This document shows, one piece after another, positions 43,070 through 63,758 of a stretch of DNA of 64,000 bases. The notes beneath the pieces are model-generated. The model saw only the letters and a program-made list of their open reading frames with translations. It was not told where the DNA came from and made no database searches. The stretch comes from an uncultured Candidatus Rokubacteria bacterium. Lineage in GTDB: Bacteria > Methylomirabilota > Methylomirabilia > Rokubacteriales > DASRDR01. Position 1 is the stretch's first letter, and each line of letters begins with the position of its first letter. A program made the translations under genes and the position numbers. Where the stretch lies: NCBI GenBank assembly GCA_963805625.1, contig CAWDVE010000012.1, forward strand, positions 96,001 through 160,000, given 5' to 3'.

Positions 43070-43095
43070 GGGGAAACAGCTGAGAACGAGCTTTA
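43070..43095 (+). repeat. dif/Xer-like repeat copy 1, left part (continues at 44204-44211 and 45785-45788)
   Basis: After removing the ISs: GGGGAA ACAGCTGAGAA CGAGCT TTATGTCGACT ACCC (11-6-11 core). The Xer assignment is inferred. Confidence 0.65.
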
Positions 43096-44201
43096 TTGAT
43101 CTTTGACTATGTAATGGATACACGACTCACGTCCACGGCAGGTCCGATGCGAGGATGCAGGACCACAGGAGGTGCTGGGACCCATGGACCCGACGGAACG
43201 ACCGCCGTAGGTGGGCATCCAATTGACGAAGGTGTTCCGGTGCGCCATTGGCCAAGTCATGCTTGAACTTGGTCCAGACGAACTCGTCGGGATTCAGCTC
43301 GGGGGCATAGGCCGGGAACCGATGCACGTGCAGCCGCGTGTGTCGGGTCAAGAACGCCGTGACGTCGGCGCGCCGGTGAATCATGCCACCATCCCAGAGC
43401 AGCTCGACCGGTCCGCGGAGGTGCCGCAGGAGGTGGCGCAGAAACACCACGACCTCCGCCCCGGTGATGTTCACGGGGTGGACGTGCATGTACAAGCCCA
43501 GGCGGGCGCGCTGGGGGGACACCGACAGGGCAGAAATCGCCGACAGCTTGTCGCGCGTGTAGCTGTGGCGTACCCGCGGCGTACACCCCACCGGCGCCCA
43601 GGTCTTCCGCATGTTCGGGATCAACAGGAAGCCGCTTTCATCGAGAAACACGAGGTGGGCCCCACGTCGGGCGGCGTTTTTTTATATCCGGCCACGTGTG
43701 CGTCTTCCAGTGTTCGATGGCCGCCTCGTCCCGCTGGCGCGCGCGCCGTTCGGGTTTCTGCCAACTCCAATGCAGGCCGTGCCGCAAGAGCTTCCACACG
43801 CCGACCGGACTGTAGCGTACGTCGAACTCCGCCTCGATCAGCGTGCCGATGCGCTTGAGCGTCCACAACTCGGTCGTGTGTCCGGCGGCCCGCGCGCCTT
43901 GGAGCAGCAACCGCCGGAGGCGCGCCTTCTGGGTCTCCGTCAACCGGGGCGGGCGGCCCGGCGTGGGCCGGGCGCGTAATCCGTTCCGCCGGTCGCGCCG
44001 ATACGCTTGCTTCCAGCGCACGACGGAGCTCACGGCCGCCCGGACCAAGCGGGCGACTTCGCGATATGGCGTGCCCACCCGCAGGAGCGCGATAGCCCGG
44101 CGTCGACGCTTTTCCAGTTGCTCGGCCGTGCCAGAAGGTCTCATGCCGATCAGCATAGTGAACCACAGGCTAACCGTATGCATTCTTTAGTAAATGGTCA
44201 A
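43096..44201 (-). mobile_element. IS630 family element 1
   Basis: TA duplication at 43094-95 and 44202-03; imperfect terminal IRs TTGATCTTTGACTA / TTGACCATTTACTA. Confidence 0.9.
43127..44144 (-). CDS. IS630 transposase (orfA/orfB joined by a -1 frameshift at A7, 43677-43683)
   Basis: HTH orfA ending DIKK; orfB with FLDESG, WDG and YAPELNPDE. Confidence 0.85.
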
Positions 44202-44224
44202 TATGTCGACTTCTATGAAGCGGC

Positions 44225-44645
44225 CCCCCGTGTCAAGCGATAGCGGCGTGTGTGGTGTCCCTCTCGTCCTCCCGTCCTAGGTCAGCGGTCCACGGCGATG
44301 GGACCTACGGTTCCCGCGAGGTTCAGTCATCCTTCTATTCGCGCTCGTCAGGGGCGAGCGGGGCTCGCCGGCGCATGAGGGGAGTCGAAGGGTGGGGACG
44401 CCATCTATGCAACGGCGCTCGAACAGCGGCCAAGTCGACATACGCGCTCACCCACCCGTCGAACCTGCGCGAGACCGAGGTGCCGCTCATCTCACCGACG
44501 CGGACTATGCCTGACTTCTCAGGGCTCGGAGCCTGACTCGGGTGAATCGCGATCGCCCAGTGGGCCCAGGACGCGTCCGTTGACCTGGACCGCTATCTGG
44601 GTATTCCCGAAATCGGCTATTTTCGCGTTCGCCATGCGCCGCCCG
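44225..44645 (-). ncRNA. Candidate bridge/seek RNA in the IS1111 3' non-coding region (limits approximate)
   Basis: Contains ATAGAAG (44332-44338) and TCCCATC (44297-44303) matching the predicted circle junction, and TATGTCGACT (44433-44442) and GTGGGT (44450-44455) matching the target flanks. Confidence 0.55.
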
Positions 44646-45689
44646 TCAGACGGGAGCAGCCGCCTCGGCCACGTGGCGCGGCACGACCCGTGGAGTATAC
44701 GTCGTCCCGTCGCGCAGCATCGCGTAAAGGATGCCGGCCAGGCGACGGGCCAGCGCGACGACGGCGATCTTCTTGCCACGGCGCGTGGCGATGCCCATGG
44801 CCCACCGCCGCAAGGCGACCGTCCGGGGATCACGCAGGCGCAGGATCGACACGGCCGCCTGGACGAGCAACCAGCGCATCCGGGTATTGCCAGCCTTGGT
44901 GATCCGCCCGCGTCGTTGACTCTCCCCCGAGCTCAGCTCCCTCGGGACGAGGCCGAGATACGCTTCCACGTCATGCGCCCGGTGGAAACGCCCGGCGTCG
45001 TCGATCGTGGCCACGAAGGCCGCCGCGGTCACCGGTCCCACACTGGGGACTGTCCGCAGGCGCTGGACTCGCACATCTGGGCGCGTGACGGCCTCGATCA
45101 CCTCGTCCGAGTAGGCGAGCTGCTGATTGACGGGCCGCATCACCGCCAGCAGGGGCGCCACCTCCGAGAGCAGGCGGCCCGGCAGCGGCAGCGCCACGAC
45201 GCGCCGGATGAACGTGTCCGCGCTCCCCGTGGGCACGCGCCACCCGTGGCGGCGCAGAAGAGCCCGGATCAGGGCGATGTAGCCGGTGCGCGTCCGAACC
45301 AAGGCATCGCGCACCGCCAGGCGCCCCCGCACATGCCGCTGCGCGTCCGAGAGCCGATGCGCCGGGCGGTACGCCCCCAGCAGGCAGGCCTCCGCCAGCG
45401 CCCGGGCATCCCGCCGATCGGTCTTGACCTTCCGGGTCCGCGTGGCAGACATCGGCGCGAAGTTCGGGTCCGCCACCACGACCTCGTGGCCCAAGGCCTC
45501 AAGGCAGCGCGCCACCCACTCGCTCTCCGTTGAGGCCTCGACGAGGATCCGGGCTCGCGGCCGGCCGCCCAGCACCTCCGCGAACCGCTCGGGCTCGGTG
45601 CGGATCCGGCATTCGCTCAATTGGCCCCCCTCGCGGAGGGTGCAGATCTGGCTTTCCTTCTTGTGCAGGTCGATGCCAACATAGTCCAT
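44646..45689 (-). CDS. IS110 family recombinase/transposase
   Basis: YVGIDLHK, VEAST, KTDRRDA (DEDD RuvC domain); VPSVGP, YLGLVP..SSG, ITKAGN. Confidence 0.93.
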   Translation of the reverse strand: MDYVGIDLHKKESQICTLREGGQLSECRIRTEPERFAEVLGGRPRARILVEASTESEWVARCLEALGHEVVVADPNFAPMSATRTRKVKTDRRDARALAEACLLGAYRPAHRLSDAQRHVRGRLAVRDALVRTRTGYIALIRALLRRHGWRVPTGSADTFIRRVVALPLPGRLLSEVAPLLAVMRPVNQQLAYSDEVIEAVTRPDVRVQRLRTVPSVGPVTAAAFVATIDDAGRFHRAHDVEAYLGLVPRELSSGESQRRGRITKAGNTRMRWLLVQAAVSILRLRDPRTVALRRWAMGIATRRGKKIAVVALARRLAGILYAMLRDGTTYTPRVVPRHVAEAAAPV

Positions 45690-45810
45690 GGCTGGCCCCC
45701 TCGTGCGCCCGTGAGCGCGTGTTCGCTCAGTGGGGCACTGTATGCCACCACGTCGAGCTGCGGGTCAGCCGCTTCATCCCATCTACCCACGTTCCCCGGG
45801 AGGTGTGCCC

Positions 45811-46269
45811 GTGCCAGTCGATCGCACGTATGCAACTGAGAACGATGCACAGCGGGAGCGGCTTCGCGCCCTTGTCCGGAGCCTCGGCGACCAGGACCTC
45901 GCGCGCCCCATGGAGGCCGGCTGGACGGTGGCGGCAGTCCTCGCGCACGCCGCCTTCTGGGATCAGCGGATTGTCGTCCTGCTCGACCAGTGGGAGCAAC
46001 GGGGCCCCTCGTGGACCCCGCCCCTCGAAGTGGAGCGCGATGGCGACTGGATCAACGATGCCGCGAAGGCGCTCTGCCTGGCCCTCCCGCCTCGCGTGGC
46101 GGCCGACCTCGCCGTCTCGGTCGCCGAGGCGGTGGATCGGCGGGTGGCCGCGGTGAGCGACGCCATCATCGAGGCGAATGCGCGGGCCGGCTCTCCGCTC
46201 AACTGGCACCGCGCGGAACACCGGCGCGAGCACCTGGACGAGATCGAGCGAGCGCTCCGCGGCGCCTGA
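45811..46269 (+). CDS. DinB/MDMPI superfamily protein
   Basis: GWTVAAVLAHAAFWD and HRREHLDEI motifs; GGAGG RBS. Confidence 0.8.
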   Translation: MPVDRTYATENDAQRERLRALVRSLGDQDLARPMEAGWTVAAVLAHAAFWDQRIVVLLDQWEQRGPSWTPPLEVERDGDWINDAAKALCLALPPRVAADLAVSVAEAVDRRVAAVSDAIIEANARAGSPLNWHRAEHRREHLDEIERALRGA

Positions 46270-46297: not shown

Positions 46298-46323
46298 GGG
46301 GAAACAGCTGAGAACGAGCTCTA
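46298..46323 (+). repeat. dif/Xer-like repeat copy 2, left part (continues at 47398-47409)
   Basis: Reconstructed GGGGAA ACAGCTGAGAA CGAGCT CTATGTCGACT ACCC; 37 of 38 bp identical to copy 1. Confidence 0.65.
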
Positions 46324-47395
46324 CTAGTCAGTCCGACACTTGGCGCATGAAAGAAGGAGCGAACCAGGCCGGTCGCGCTTGAATACCCGCCAGATCCACC
46401 TGGACGCGGCTTCGAAGCGATTCGTCTTTCCGCAACGGGGTCTTGCTGACGCCTTGGCGCTTGAGGTGGTTCCAGACGAACTCGTCGGGGTTCAACTCCG
46501 GCGCATAGCCGGGCAGGAAATGCAGCTCGAGGCGACCGGCAAGCTGCTGGACGTACTGCGCGGCTACGTTGGCGATGTGCGCGGGGTGGCCGTCGAGGAC
46601 GAGGAACACGGCGCGCTTGCGCCCGCGCATGAAGTGCGTCAGCAACTCGACGAACCGTGGGGCGTTGAGCCGTTCGGTGTAGATCTCGTACCAGAAGGCG
46701 CCGCGGGCGTTGACGGCGGAGATGGCGCTCACGCTCTGGCGCCGGCCGCTCGTGGGGACCTCGGGCGTCTGCCCCCGCAGACCCCACGTCCGCCCGAGGA
46801 CTTGGTCGGAACGGACCCCGGCCTCATCGAGGAAGAAGATCTTCGCGCCGACGCGCTTGGCCCGCGCGCGCAGGCGGGGGAACACCGCCGTTTTCCAGTG
46901 CTCGATCGCCACGGGATCGCGCTCGTAGGCGCGGCGCAACGGTTTCTGGGGCGTGATGTCCAACTCGGTGAGGAGGCGACCGACGGCGGTCACGCCCAGC
47001 CGCACGCCGAACTTCTGTGCGATCAGCGCCGCTACAATCTGCCGAGTCCAGAGGCCAAAGTCGAAGCCGTACTGGCGCGGGTCCTTGCCATTGATCCATC
47101 GCCGGACCTGGAGCTTCTGGCGCGGCGTCAGGGCCGGCTGCCGCCCCGGATGTGTTCGCGCGGTGAGCGCCGCTGGGCCGCGTCGCCGCACCGCGGTCAG
47201 CCATTTGTAGATCGTGGTGCGACACAACCCATAGCCTTTGATGACGTCGCTCGGCGCTTCGCCTTCCTGCACGCGCCGCACGGCCATGCGCCGGATTGTC
47301 TCGGAGGTCTCGTGCGACAGGGTCCGCCCGTCGATCCGCATAACCCTTCATATCACAATCCGAGCGCAGTGTAGCCTAAAGACAGGACTGGTTAG
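46324..47395 (-). mobile_element. IS630 family element 2
   Basis: TA duplication at 46322-23 and 47396-97; terminal IRs CTAGTCAGTCC / CTAACCAGTCC. Confidence 0.9.
46328..47341 (-). CDS. IS630 transposase (single ORF; possible frameshift in the last ~15 codons)
   Basis: FLDEAG, VLDGHPAH, YAPELNPDE. Confidence 0.9.
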   Translation of the reverse strand: MRIDGRTLSHETSETIRRMAVRRVQEGEAPSDVIKGYGLCRTTIYKWLTAVRRRGPAALTARTHPGRQPALTPRQKLQVRRWINGKDPRQYGFDFGLWTRQIVAALIAQKFGVRLGVTAVGRLLTELDITPQKPLRRAYERDPVAIEHWKTAVFPRLRARAKRVGAKIFFLDEAGVRSDQVLGRTWGLRGQTPEVPTSGRRQSVSAISAVNARGAFWYEIYTERLNAPRFVELLTHFMRGRKRAVFLVLDGHPAHIANVAAQYVQQLAGRLELHFLPGYAPELNPDEFVWNHLKRQGVSKTPLRKDESLRSRVQVDLAGIQARPAWFAPSFMRQVSD

Positions 47396-47415
47396 TATGT
47401 CGACTACCCCCAAGC

Positions 47416-50104: not shown

Positions 50105-51410
50105 GGGATTGTCACGAAATAAATGTACCAGATAATGGGATCGTGGCTGCTAGGGTATCCCATGGATGGTGGCCGAGCAGGCCATTCGACGACGGTTCCG
50201 GCTGATCGAGCCGCACCTGGACGAGCGGCTGCGCCGGCTGGTGGCCGCGGCGGAAGTCGCGGCCGCGGACAGCGTGTCGGCGGTGGCCCGGGCCACCGGA
50301 GTGTCCCGGCGCGCCATTCGCGCTGGGGTCACGGAGCTGAAGGCCCGTGGCGCAGCGGCCCTGGCCCCGGGGCGGATCCGGCGTCCCGGAGGCGGGCGCA
50401 AGCGCACGGTCGACCAGGATCCGACGTTGGTGACGGACTTGGAAACGCTGATCGAACCCACGACGCGCGGGGATCCGCAGTCCCCGCTGCGGTGGACCTG
50501 CAAGAGCGTCCGGCGCCTGGCCGCCGAGCTGACCCGCCAAGGGCCTCGCACGAGCCATCGGATGGTCGCCGCGTTGCTCCAGCAGTTGGGGTACAGCCTG
50601 CAGGCCAATCGGAAGACGATCGAGGGCACCCGGCACCCCGATCGCAATGCCCAGTTCGAGCACATCGCCGCCCGCGTCCAGGCCACGCTGCGCCAGGGCC
50701 AGCCGGCGATCTCTGTCGATACCAAGAAGAAGGAGCTCGTGGGGCCGTTCAAGAATGCCGGTCGCGAATGGCGGGCCCACGGGCAGCCTCGGCCGGTGCG
50801 GGTCCACGACTTCGTGCAGCCGGAGCTGGGGCGCGCCATTCCCTACGGGGTCTACGATCTGGGCGCCAACACCGGCTGGGTCAGTGTCGGCATCGACCAC
50901 GACACGGCGGCGTTTGCCGTCGCGAGCATTCGCCACTGGTGGCAGGCCATGGGGCGCCGGGCCTATCCTCACGCCCGGCGGCTGCTGATCACGGCCGACG
51001 CCGGCGGGAGCAACGGCGCCCGCCGGCGGTTGTGGAAGGTCGAGCTGCAGAAACTGGCGGACCGCCTCCACCTGCCCATCACGGTGTGTCATTTCCCGCC
51101 CGGCACGAGCAAGTGGAACAAGATCGAACACCGCCTGTTCTCCTTCATCACTCAGAACTGGCGCGGCCAGCCCCTGCTCAGTCACGCGGTCATTGTGAAT
51201 CTGATCGCGGCCACCACGACCACCACGGGCCTCCGCGTGCGGGCGCGGCTGGACACGACCCGGTATCCCTCGGGCCTCAAGGTCAGTCGCGCCACCCTGG
51301 AGGCCGTCCGCCTGCGGCCCGATCCGTTTCACGGGGACTGGAACTACACGATCCTTCCCACCCAGTCGGCAAAGCGATAGCATCTGGTCCATTTATTTCG
51401 CACCGGGTCC
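50105..51410 (+). mobile_element. ISAzo13 family element
   Basis: IR core CGAAATAAATG(T/G)ACCAGAT at both ends; flanked by TTA(G). Confidence 0.85.
50166..51380 (+). CDS. ISAzo13 family transposase
   Basis: RGDPQSPLRWTCKS, ISVDTKKKE, TADAGGSNG, PPGTSKWNKIEHRLFS. Confidence 0.92.
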   Translation: MVAEQAIRRRFRLIEPHLDERLRRLVAAAEVAAADSVSAVARATGVSRRAIRAGVTELKARGAAALAPGRIRRPGGGRKRTVDQDPTLVTDLETLIEPTTRGDPQSPLRWTCKSVRRLAAELTRQGPRTSHRMVAALLQQLGYSLQANRKTIEGTRHPDRNAQFEHIAARVQATLRQGQPAISVDTKKKELVGPFKNAGREWRAHGQPRPVRVHDFVQPELGRAIPYGVYDLGANTGWVSVGIDHDTAAFAVASIRHWWQAMGRRAYPHARRLLITADAGGSNGARRRLWKVELQKLADRLHLPITVCHFPPGTSKWNKIEHRLFSFITQNWRGQPLLSHAVIVNLIAATTTTTGLRVRARLDTTRYPSGLKVSRATLEAVRLRPDPFHGDWNYTILPTQSAKR

Positions 51411-61986: not shown

Positions 61987-62165
61987 GGGCGGCTGACCCG
62001 GGTGCGAGTCTCCGACCTGGAGGCATTCGTCCAGGCGCGCCGTTGACGCCCCGCCAGCAGCGGCTCCTGAGTGGCGCTAGGAGCCCGTAGGAGCCGCCTT
62101 CTCCCCCTGAGCCATGGCGCGGGGCCGCCCCCGATGGGGCCCCGCGTCTCAGGGGACTTGTGTAC

Positions 62166-62185
62166 TGGTATATGATACGATACCA
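62166..62185. promoter_or_regulatory. Putative operator TGGTAT-N8-ATACCA at the Xre-integrase promoter
   Basis: Inverted repeat in an AT-rich patch ending 1 nt before the Xre ATG. Confidence 0.45.
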
Positions 62186-62186
62186 T

Positions 62187-62411
62187 ATGCGACAGATGAT
62201 CCTCCTTCGCTACTGGCGGGAGCGGCGAGGCTACTCGGTGCGCGGGCTGGCGAAGGTGGCCGGCGTGGGTTACGTCAGCATCGTGCGGATCGAGAACGGC
62301 CACATGAGCCCGACCGTCGCCATGCTGGAGAAGCTGGCCGAGGCGCTGGGGATCAGCGTGCGCGATTTCTTCCCGGTGGAGAAGCCTACTGGCAAGAGGA
62401 GGGCACAGTGA
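62187..62411 (+). CDS. Xre-family HTH regulator
   Basis: WRERRGYSVRGLAKVAGV...RIENG..SPTVAMLEKLAEALG; coupled to the integrase gene. Confidence 0.85.
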   Translation: MRQMILLRYWRERRGYSVRGLAKVAGVGYVSIVRIENGHMSPTVAMLEKLAEALGISVRDFFPVEKPTGKRRAQ

Positions 62412-63499
62412 TGAAGCGGGGTCGGAAGGTGCGAGGCGTATTTCTGCGAGAGGGGCAGTGGTGGATTCGCTATGCGTGCACGCTCGGGCACGATCATCGG
62501 AAGCCTAGTGGCGACCTGAAGACCGCAGCAACCGAGGAACACAAGGCCAAGCGCGCAGAGATGCGCGAAGCGCGCAAGGCAGGGCGCGAGTGCTGCCCCC
62601 GACTGGTGCAACGGGAGCGCCCGGTGCTGTTCGATCAGATCGTGGACGACTACATGGAGTACAGCGAGCGTAGCAAGCGCTCGTACCGGGACGACAAGTT
62701 TCGCAAGGCCAGGCTCGTGGCATCGTTCGGTGGCCGGCTTGCCAGTGACATTCGCGCCAAGGATGTCGAGGACTTCAAGGCGGCGCTTGCCGAATCCCGC
62801 AAGGTGGCGACCGTGAATCACCATCTCAAGCTGCTGAAGGCCGTCTTCAACCGAGCGATCCGGCAGGGCCGACTCACCTTCAACCCAGTCACCGCCGTCA
62901 AGCTCTTCCAGGAGCACAATGCTCGCAACCGGTGCCTCAGTCGTGAGGAGGAGGGTCGGCTCCTGAAGGCCCTCCCGGAGCGGCTTCGCCCGCTCGTGGC
63001 AGTCGCGCTCAACACGGGGATGCGCCGGGGCGAACTCCAGGCGCTCCGTTGGTCGGATGTGGACTTCGCCACCGGAACGCTCCATATCCGTCGCGACAAG
63101 GCCGGCGAGGGCCGCTGGGTCGCCTTGAACAGCGCGGCCCGAGATGCCCTCCTGGCCGTCAAACGGGAGCAGAAGGTGCTCGGCTCCTACGTGTTCTGCT
63201 CCCCGGAAGGTCGGTTCCTCCACAACCTGGAGCGTGACTGGCGGCCCGCCCTGGAGACGGCGAAGATCCCGGACTTCCGATTCCACGACTGCCGGCACAC
63301 GTTCGCGTCCCGATTGGCCATGACTCCAGGCGTCGACCTGTACACGGTCCAGCGAGCGGGAGGGTGGAAGAGTCAGGCCATGGTGCAGCGGTACGCCCAC
63401 CTCAGCCCCGACTACGTGAGGGCCGCCGTCGAGCGGATGGCCAGGGGTGAATCCGAGGGTGGAACCGGCACGAAAACCGGCACTGGGCAGCCCGCCTGA
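62411..63499 (+). CDS. Tyrosine recombinase/integrase
   Basis: ATVNHHL, NTGMRRGEL, FHDCRH, GWKS..MVQRYAH catalytic motifs; adjacent to the tRNA att site. Confidence 0.95.
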   Translation: MKRGRKVRGVFLREGQWWIRYACTLGHDHRKPSGDLKTAATEEHKAKRAEMREARKAGRECCPRLVQRERPVLFDQIVDDYMEYSERSKRSYRDDKFRKARLVASFGGRLASDIRAKDVEDFKAALAESRKVATVNHHLKLLKAVFNRAIRQGRLTFNPVTAVKLFQEHNARNRCLSREEEGRLLKALPERLRPLVAVALNTGMRRGELQALRWSDVDFATGTLHIRRDKAGEGRWVALNSAARDALLAVKREQKVLGSYVFCSPEGRFLHNLERDWRPALETAKIPDFRFHDCRHTFASRLAMTPGVDLYTVQRAGGWKSQAMVQRYAHLSPDYVRAAVERMARGESEGGTGTKTGTGQPA

Positions 63500-63534
63500 G
63501 AACGGACCAGACGACGTAAGTACGCGGAAAGTCA

Positions 63535-63611
<77 letters not shown>

Positions 63612-63681
63612 ACGCCTCTTACCGTAGCACGGCCCTCTCGGCGTTCAGGCGGGAACGAGACGGCCGAGCGGGTGGGAAGGG

Positions 63682-63758
63682 TGGTCGGGGCGAGCCGATT
63701 TGAACGGCCGACCTCCTGCTCCCAAGGCAGGCGCGCTACCCGGCTGCGCCACGCCCCG
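63682..63758 (-). tRNA. tRNA-Pro (anticodon TGG)
   Basis: CGGGGCGTGGCGCAGCCGGGTAGCGCGCCTGCCTTGGGAGCAGGAGGTCGGCCGTTCAAATCGGCTCGCCCCGACCA; 77 nt. Confidence 0.97.

Follow-up and report, generated by a model that had tools for sequence, protein, structure and literature searches.

A predicted bridge RNA likely guides an IS1111-type element to the XerD-like arm of an accessory dif-like repeat in a Candidatus Rokubacteria genome

Results

Element, insertion site and empty site

The window, meaning the whole 64,000-nucleotide stretch analysed here, belongs to the genome G000 of an uncultured Candidatus Rokubacteria bacterium and contains an intact IS1111-type element at 44212-45784 on the minus strand, which is 1573 bp long counting one CT core (45783-45784) and is present in only one copy in G000. 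The element starts directly after the CT that closes the XerD-like arm of a repeated site with an 11-6-11 layout, and this confirms the position at the outer edge of that arm given by the first-pass annotation of this DNA. The first copy of the site is split. Its left part (43076-43095, plus strand) consists of an XerC-like arm (43076-43086), a 6-bp spacer (43087-43092) and the first three bases of the XerD-like arm; an IS630-family element (element A, 43096-44201, minus strand) sits in the TA of the arm, which is duplicated at 43094-43095 and 44202-44203; and the bases that complete the XerD-like arm, CT core included (44202-44211, plus strand), are followed immediately by the IS1111 element. 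The target flank beyond the core (45785-45790, plus strand) carries the ACCC that the predicted short guide would read, which fits at only two of four bases. Further on, a DinB-family gene (45811-46269, plus strand), a candidate cassette, lies between the two direct site copies. The left part of the second copy (46304-46323, plus strand) has the same XerC-like arm and spacer (46304-46320) as the first, another IS630-family element (element B, 46324-47395, minus strand) is inserted at the same TA, and the right part (47396-47409, plus strand) is without an IS1111 element.

Once the IS630 elements are set aside, both window copies consist of an 11-bp XerC-like arm, a spacer and an 11-bp XerD-like arm. 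The true XerC-like arm of the first copy is 1.1 kb from the remainder of its XerD-like arm, with IS630 element A between them; the DNA directly to the left of this remainder is the IS630 end, reaching to 44201, that had been overlooked. The ends of element A could be fixed because a second copy exists elsewhere on contig C12, and element B has a second copy on contig C10. Two different IS630-family elements have split both repeat copies at the same TA (43094-43095 and 46322-46323), and the other G000 copies of elements A and B do not lie at dif-like sites.

An empty site, free of both elements, is found in a contig of run X4, in which 43096 and 45783 are linked through the five arm bases that were missing, the short side of this contig being 40 letters, and a contig of run X15 contains a variant of it. 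These contigs, which hold the empty junction predicted for excision, may come from related strains; run X1, possibly the source sample, was left out of the count. The 28-bp site core is kept whole after insertion. In G242, the same arm-spacer-arm sequence is unbroken and is then followed by a homologous element (L164). Near-identical right ends of the element adjoin other repeat copies in runs X5, X8 and X11 and a site with a different left arm (type B, described below) in run X2, the listed pieces of X2, X5 and X8 ending before the long guide. At the right ends of L019, L088 and L091, a common foreign sequence stands where the core is normally found and may be a second element inserted at that point.

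Recombinase, ends and class of the element

The recombinase gene (44646-45689, minus strand) encodes 347 aa with matches to PF01548 and PF02371, and its closest named homologs come from Candidatus Rokubacteria assemblies. Residues D7, E51, D91, D94 and S254 align with D11, E60, D102, D105 and S241 of IS621 (PDB 8WT6), whose catalytic roles are described in PMC11208158; among 42 homologous proteins, D7, E51, D91 and S254 are invariant and D94 is nearly so. The sub-terminal inverted repeats are located at 45768-45777 (left) and 44215-44224 (right), both on the minus strand, with 7 nt (5 nt plus the CT core) outside the left repeat and 3 nt outside the right repeat, in agreement with the 7/3-nt geometry reported at first pass. 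In the predicted circle they would be 10 nt apart, as in most homologs. Non-coding stretches of 434 nt and 95 nt lie downstream and upstream of the recombinase gene, respectively. By every feature that is testable in sequence, the element is a member of the IS1111 group of the IS110 family: it has a DEDD RuvC-like domain and a Transposase_20 domain with a catalytic serine, sub-terminal inverted repeats inset at both ends, a long non-coding region 3' of the gene and, in its predicted RNA, two covarying target matches with the top-strand complement first.

A TTGACA at 44231-44236 (minus strand) is the predicted -35 box of a putative circle-junction promoter, and in 49 of 61 elements this hexamer lies 16 or 17 nt before the end of the inner repeat. 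The junction promoter was not found by a promoter scan of the linear element. Similarly, the joined ends of a circle were not seen in the contigs of eight runs, an assembly product that drops rare forms.

Elsewhere in the window, a 404-aa open reading frame (50166-51380) has no Pfam match and looks like an ISAzo13-type transposase. A tyrosine integrase (62111-63758) is located beside tRNA-Arg and tRNA-Pro, and this context suggests that the region lies within an integrated island.

Predicted bridge RNA

The predicted bridge-RNA core (44309-44476, minus strand) comprises seven helices, with a target loop followed by a donor loop. On the 5' strand of the target loop lies the long guide TATGTCGACT (44433-44442, minus strand; 7-8 nt plus the CT core), which matches the XerD-like arm, and on the 3' strand lies the short guide GCAT with the AG core (44405-44410, minus strand), which is followed by the predicted handshake dinucleotide AT (44403-44404, minus strand). 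Read on the plus strand of the window, the target is laid out as 7 nt, CT and 4 nt, as in IS621. The donor guide ATAGAAG (44332-44338, minus strand) tracks the right end of the element. Another stretch (44376-44384, minus strand) is a candidate second donor guide by position alone, with a 6/9 match to the left end; inspection revealed no covariation there, and no second donor guide covaries in the homologs.

The structure was set by hand because the RNAalifold consensus mis-paired the outer helices, and, coming from the same 52 aligned sequences on which it was counted, it leans towards passing: 91.3% of the cells are paired and 15 of the 42 pairs carry a compensatory change, compared with no equally high value in 500 shuffles and 32-50% in slid controls. 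The fold is seen as a conserved core across homologs. The whole 431-nt region gave no signal on folding (z -0.70), the value for the 176-nt core being z -2.43. The single-sequence fold pairs the two target guides with each other, and an Rfam search with the RNA returned nothing above gathering.

The first-pass annotation had named four strings in this region as matches to the target or to the circle junction, namely ATAGAAG, TATGTCGACT, TCCCATC (44297-44303) and GTGGGT (44450-44455). All four are present. The matches of ATAGAAG and TATGTCGACT go beyond chance, but those of the latter two are put down to chance, and these are no guides. GTGGGT occurs in 45 of 46 non-coding regions and in the left flank of one of 46 elements, that of the window. 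Most of it falls in a stem strand (44451-44457, minus strand) that pairs with 44390-44396 to form helix 3, and as a near-invariant stem strand it was rejected as a guide. A TCCCATC-type match is found in one of the 46 elements with both ends. The alternative stem with 44506-44517, raised at the same time as a caveat, can pair, but imperfectly and outside the conserved core.

Covariation of guides and targets

Homologs were taken from 80 metagenome loci and 30 genome loci (from 251 phylum genomes, of which 20 gave a match), together with 80 more loci with an alignment. The target loop was parsable in 82 of the first 110 loci, the remaining 28 being truncated or missed by the parser, and after 22 loci without a right flank, two duplicates and one altered end were dropped, 57 entered the flank test. 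The long guide matches its own flank at 6.37 of 8 positions, against 4.87 after shuffling, when the best of three registers is taken (n = 57), and none of 5000 shuffles reaches this score; with a fixed register, the values are 5.63 and 4.21 (n = 57). When each of nine guide classes is represented by one member, the guide fits its own target at 6.14 of 7 positions and that of another class at 3.01, the maximum in 2000 guide-class draws being 4.0, in a test whose 80 rows include some elements twice across two scans. The short guide matches its flank at 3.36 versus 2.79 of 4 positions (n = 58) and, in a larger set, at 3.29 versus 2.28 (n = 85). The donor guide is identical to the element end in 56 of 58 cases across three sequence states. 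For the dinucleotide that follows the short guide, identity with the two bases that open the left end is seen in 81 of 85, again with three states, although this handshake covariation reflects about two evolutionary changes. The handshake of the donor loop with the target is weak (1.13 versus 1.02 of 2; 116 of 5000 shuffles as high; n = 54). The covariation proposed at first pass as a check is found for three guides and one handshake dinucleotide, and the assignments of TATGTCGACT to the target and of ATAGAAG to the donor both hold.

Wholesale changes of the guide with a matching target occurred on separate branches, both in L084 (88% identical protein), L051, L075, L006 and L012/L086 and in the more distant L107, L225, L232 and L244. 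Phylogenetically independent pairs point in the same direction (3/3, 4.2/5, 1.6/2 and 3/3); none is opposite and no test alone gives p<0.05, the pairs being few and the tests underpowered. The flanks of L008, L056 and L099 do not fit the guide. Several targets of reprogrammed guides, in the flanks of L006, L007, L012, L051, L229, L234 and L244, still have A and T on either side of a 6-bp centre whose distance from the core is unchanged, a pattern that resembles tyrosine-recombinase sites.

G000 contains 115 places with at most one mismatch to the long guide and at most two to the short guide, and the guide sequence alone is not selective enough for site choice. This raises the question of whether protein or DNA shape, such as contact with bound XerD or a hairpin by the target, might mainly pick the site, the RNA match being secondary. 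The guides are indeed short, with many genomic places fitting about equally; ISPpu10 is reported to need a target stem-loop besides base pairing, and for IS1202-family elements no mechanism of finding dif and pdif sites has been described, XerC contact being one possibility. The wholesale guide changes matched by target changes on the branches named above are hard to reconcile with such an explanation, and we regard it as very unlikely for the main choice of site. A helper layer on top of RNA guidance is possible.

The target repeat and the chromosomal dif

An XerD-like arm is present at 45 of the 57 homolog flanks and absent from 12. It is combined with an XerC-like arm at 6-7 bp in 14 flanks, with a different left arm (type B) in 24 and with neither left arm in seven; the window element is counted among these seven because the IS630 element splits its site. 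Accordingly, 31 of the 57 flanks have an XerD-like arm without the canonical XerC-like arm at 6-7 bp, and the full layout of an 11-bp arm, a 6-8-bp spacer and an 11-bp arm is lacking in the other 43 homolog flanks. The guide reads the XerD-like arm and 4 nt beyond it, and nothing else of the site. Among 80 proteins placed on a tree, XerD-arm targeting is seen only in the branch with at least 72% identity (42 of 53 rows by a strict rule, against 0 of 27 outside). Of the 24 type-B-like flanks of sufficient length, 13 have a second Xer-like core upstream, in most cases at a distance of about 55 nt. The type B flanks of L011, L017, L020, L039, L042, L046, L052, L053 and L105 show a longer-centre Xer-like core with a second XerD-like arm about 55 nt later. 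A search of G000 for the type B site gave three weak matches, none of them convincing.

The likely chromosomal dif of G000 is a separate, single-copy site at C10:379405-379425 (L120:7424), minus strand. It is located at a strand switch of the KOPS motif at about 376-380 kb. The peak of the cumulative GC skew comes later, at 521 kb, which is 140 kb from the candidate. XerC- and XerD-like genes are also encoded on C10. By a loose pattern, 161 of 251 genomes have a dif-like candidate, and a strict pattern occurs once in 37 and twice in one of the 61 genomes searched, with zero hits in reversed controls. The third base of the dif XerD arm is mostly C in this family and A in the rest of the order. 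The dif signature is found at none of the 57 insertion flanks. Of 41 dif arms, none agrees with the guide pattern, and the element does not follow any of them; 11 of 31 accessory arms fit, a figure that the accessory pattern favours by construction. The chromosomal dif was therefore rejected as the target, since the target repeat is multi-copy and a separate single-copy site lies at the KOPS switch.

These results also bear on the earlier map taken literally, in which GTGGGT and TCCCATC would be guides as well and the target would be the dif of the chromosome. All four strings match the window insertion exactly; given the counts of both strings in 46 homologs, the pairing of GTGGGT in a stem, the dif candidate on C10 and the flanks devoid of its signature, it is scarcely credible. 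RNA-guided targeting of an Xer-like site, as such, is supported by the covariation of guide and target, but the second target guide is GCAT-AG and the target is an accessory repeat, not dif.

Copies of this repeat number 7-68 in the five genomes tested, dif being included in the counts. Neighbouring copies enclose one to four genes of varied kinds and are mostly direct repeats, with few inverted pairs. A matrix built from 23 sites of other genomes yields 12 matches at 20 bits in G000, compared with two in a reversed control, and the ten best-scoring matches comprise the dif candidate together with nine accessory sites. As read from these copies, the repeat is an accessory, multi-copy, dif-like repeat that bounds genes; from its likeness to dif only, we infer that XerCD may act on it. 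In G113 and G116 (L155-L161), accessory sites are dense, with 68 and 27 pattern matches in two sequence classes, and L157 has two accessory sites 36 bp apart.

In G243, the same DinB gene (97% identical) lies between direct sites of the same type whose upstream arm and spacer are not those of the window; this is consistent with exchange within the site. On the other hand, the next G243 gene, also between two sites, has a homolog on G000 C10 without a site in roughly 170 bases at either end, and this does not fit such exchange. Among DinB homologs at 79-83% identity, one of four (L282) has a site upstream. The latter G243 gene, together with the 31 flanks lacking the canonical XerC-like arm, raises the alternative that the RNA guides insertion while the repeat itself belongs to another tyrosine recombinase or is a regulatory repeat resembling dif. 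The left arm usually has GAGAA where dif has GATAA, the right arm ends unlike dif, and G000 has 24 tyrosine-recombinase matches. However, accessory copies in G113 and G116 retain an unchanged dif left arm, the accessory-site spacing is 6 bp, a matrix made from the accessory sites of other genomes alone ranks the G000 dif candidate seventh, and XerC- and XerD-like genes are present in the same genome; the context of DinB in G243 agrees with this. We consider this alternative rather unlikely and continue to read the target as an accessory dif-like repeat.

More distant relatives (L217, L218, L219, L264 and L267; 61-64% identity, Gemmatimonadota records) share a different guide and stand 9-11 nt inside an attC-like R'' box. 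The fit to attC holds in five of seven tested relatives at 60-64% identity, indicating that attC and Xer-like targeting occur in one lineage. By inspection, no TAAC box is common to the close clade's left flanks, and the position typical of the IS1111-attC group was not seen there.

Discussion

IS1111 seekRNAs are reported to contain two target matches with the top-strand complement first (PMC11187229), and IS1111 insertions have been described at attC, at REP and at the ends of transposons (PMC11187229, PMC11208160). Like ISEc11, ISKpn4 and ISPst6 (attC) and ISPa11 (REP), the window element combines a DEDD recombinase with sub-terminal repeats and a long 3' non-coding region (PMC11187229, PMC11208160). 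With the IS1111-group seekRNA elements described there it also shares two target matches, natural reprogramming and a repeated site used in a fixed orientation; unlike them, its target is an XerD-like arm, and insertion takes place at the edge, so that the 28-bp core is preserved. The likeness to IS621 (PMC11208158, PMC13626964) extends to the aligned catalytic residues, the CT core, the 7 + 2 + 4 target layout and the donor-pairing handshake AU. In contrast to IS621, which targets REP, the RNA here lies downstream of the gene and reads DNA on the strand opposite to the gene, and one donor guide covaries.

Insertion beside dif-like sites in a fixed orientation and at a fixed distance is shared with the ISAba32/ISAjo2 subgroup of the IS1202 family, for which a 5-bp distance to the XerC arm is reported at both dif and pdif (bioRxiv 10.1101/2022.12.17.520857, PMC10132070). 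That subgroup, as described there, has a DDE transposase, a 5-bp duplication and terminal repeats, also hits the chromosomal dif and acts by an unknown mechanism, whereas the window element has a DEDD recombinase, a 2-bp core, insertion on the XerD side and a predicted RNA guide, and dif is not hit in our sample. Similarly, the accessory repeats resemble the pdif sites and dif modules of Acinetobacter, where 11-6-11 sites surround one or a few accessory genes (PMC10132070); those modules have inversely oriented pairs on plasmids, in contrast to the mostly direct repeats on long genomic contigs here. Targeting of Xer, dif, pdif or xrs by IS110/IS1111 elements was not found in the literature searched, where supplementary target tables may hold unlabelled cases, and no fitting report of direct-repeat dif-like cassette arrays was found among papers judged by title and the start of the abstract.

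Based on the ends, catalytic residues, insertion point, empty site, RNA fold and guide covariation presented above, all of them established at the level of sequence, it is likely that the predicted bridge RNA guides the IS1111-type element to the CT at the XerD-like arm of the accessory dif-like repeat, and not to the likely dif. By analogy with IS621 and ISEc11, the element would excise as a circle, and its joined ends would form a promoter, the conserved TTGACA being combined with a weak -10 box that arises only on joining. A recombinase tetramer would then hold the target and the circle junction through RNA-DNA pairing, and strands would be exchanged at the CT core. With the 28-bp core kept, the site would serve as a repeated, low-cost landing place. 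Because 115 places in G000 loosely fit the guides, the bias may be increased by counter-selection of insertions that hit genes or by a further determinant such as the one reported for ISPpu10.

Only tentatively can a wider picture be drawn, in which Rokubacteria-like bacteria of soil and sediment would have an as yet undescribed Xer cassette system on the chromosome, with the whole IS1111 clade as its RNA-programmed resident. One or two arm bases plus the flank would allow the guide to distinguish accessory sites from the essential dif, and the element would insert without breaking the site and ride with mobile cassettes. The wider lineage might hop between site types, namely Xer-like arms and, in a sister branch, attC, by rewriting its guide.

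The targets of IS110/IS1111 elements given in the literature reviewed are REP repeats, attC, transposon ends and short linear sites; the clade described here would be a hunter of dif-like sites with a readable and testable mechanism. It also offers a natural series of guide reprogramming on an IS1111 scaffold whose layout resembles that of IS621 and whose handshake covaries, a series useful for bridge-recombinase engineering. In this uncultured lineage, the insertions also serve as markers for a dif-like repeat that occurs in multiple copies around accessory genes and may be a gene-shuffling system.
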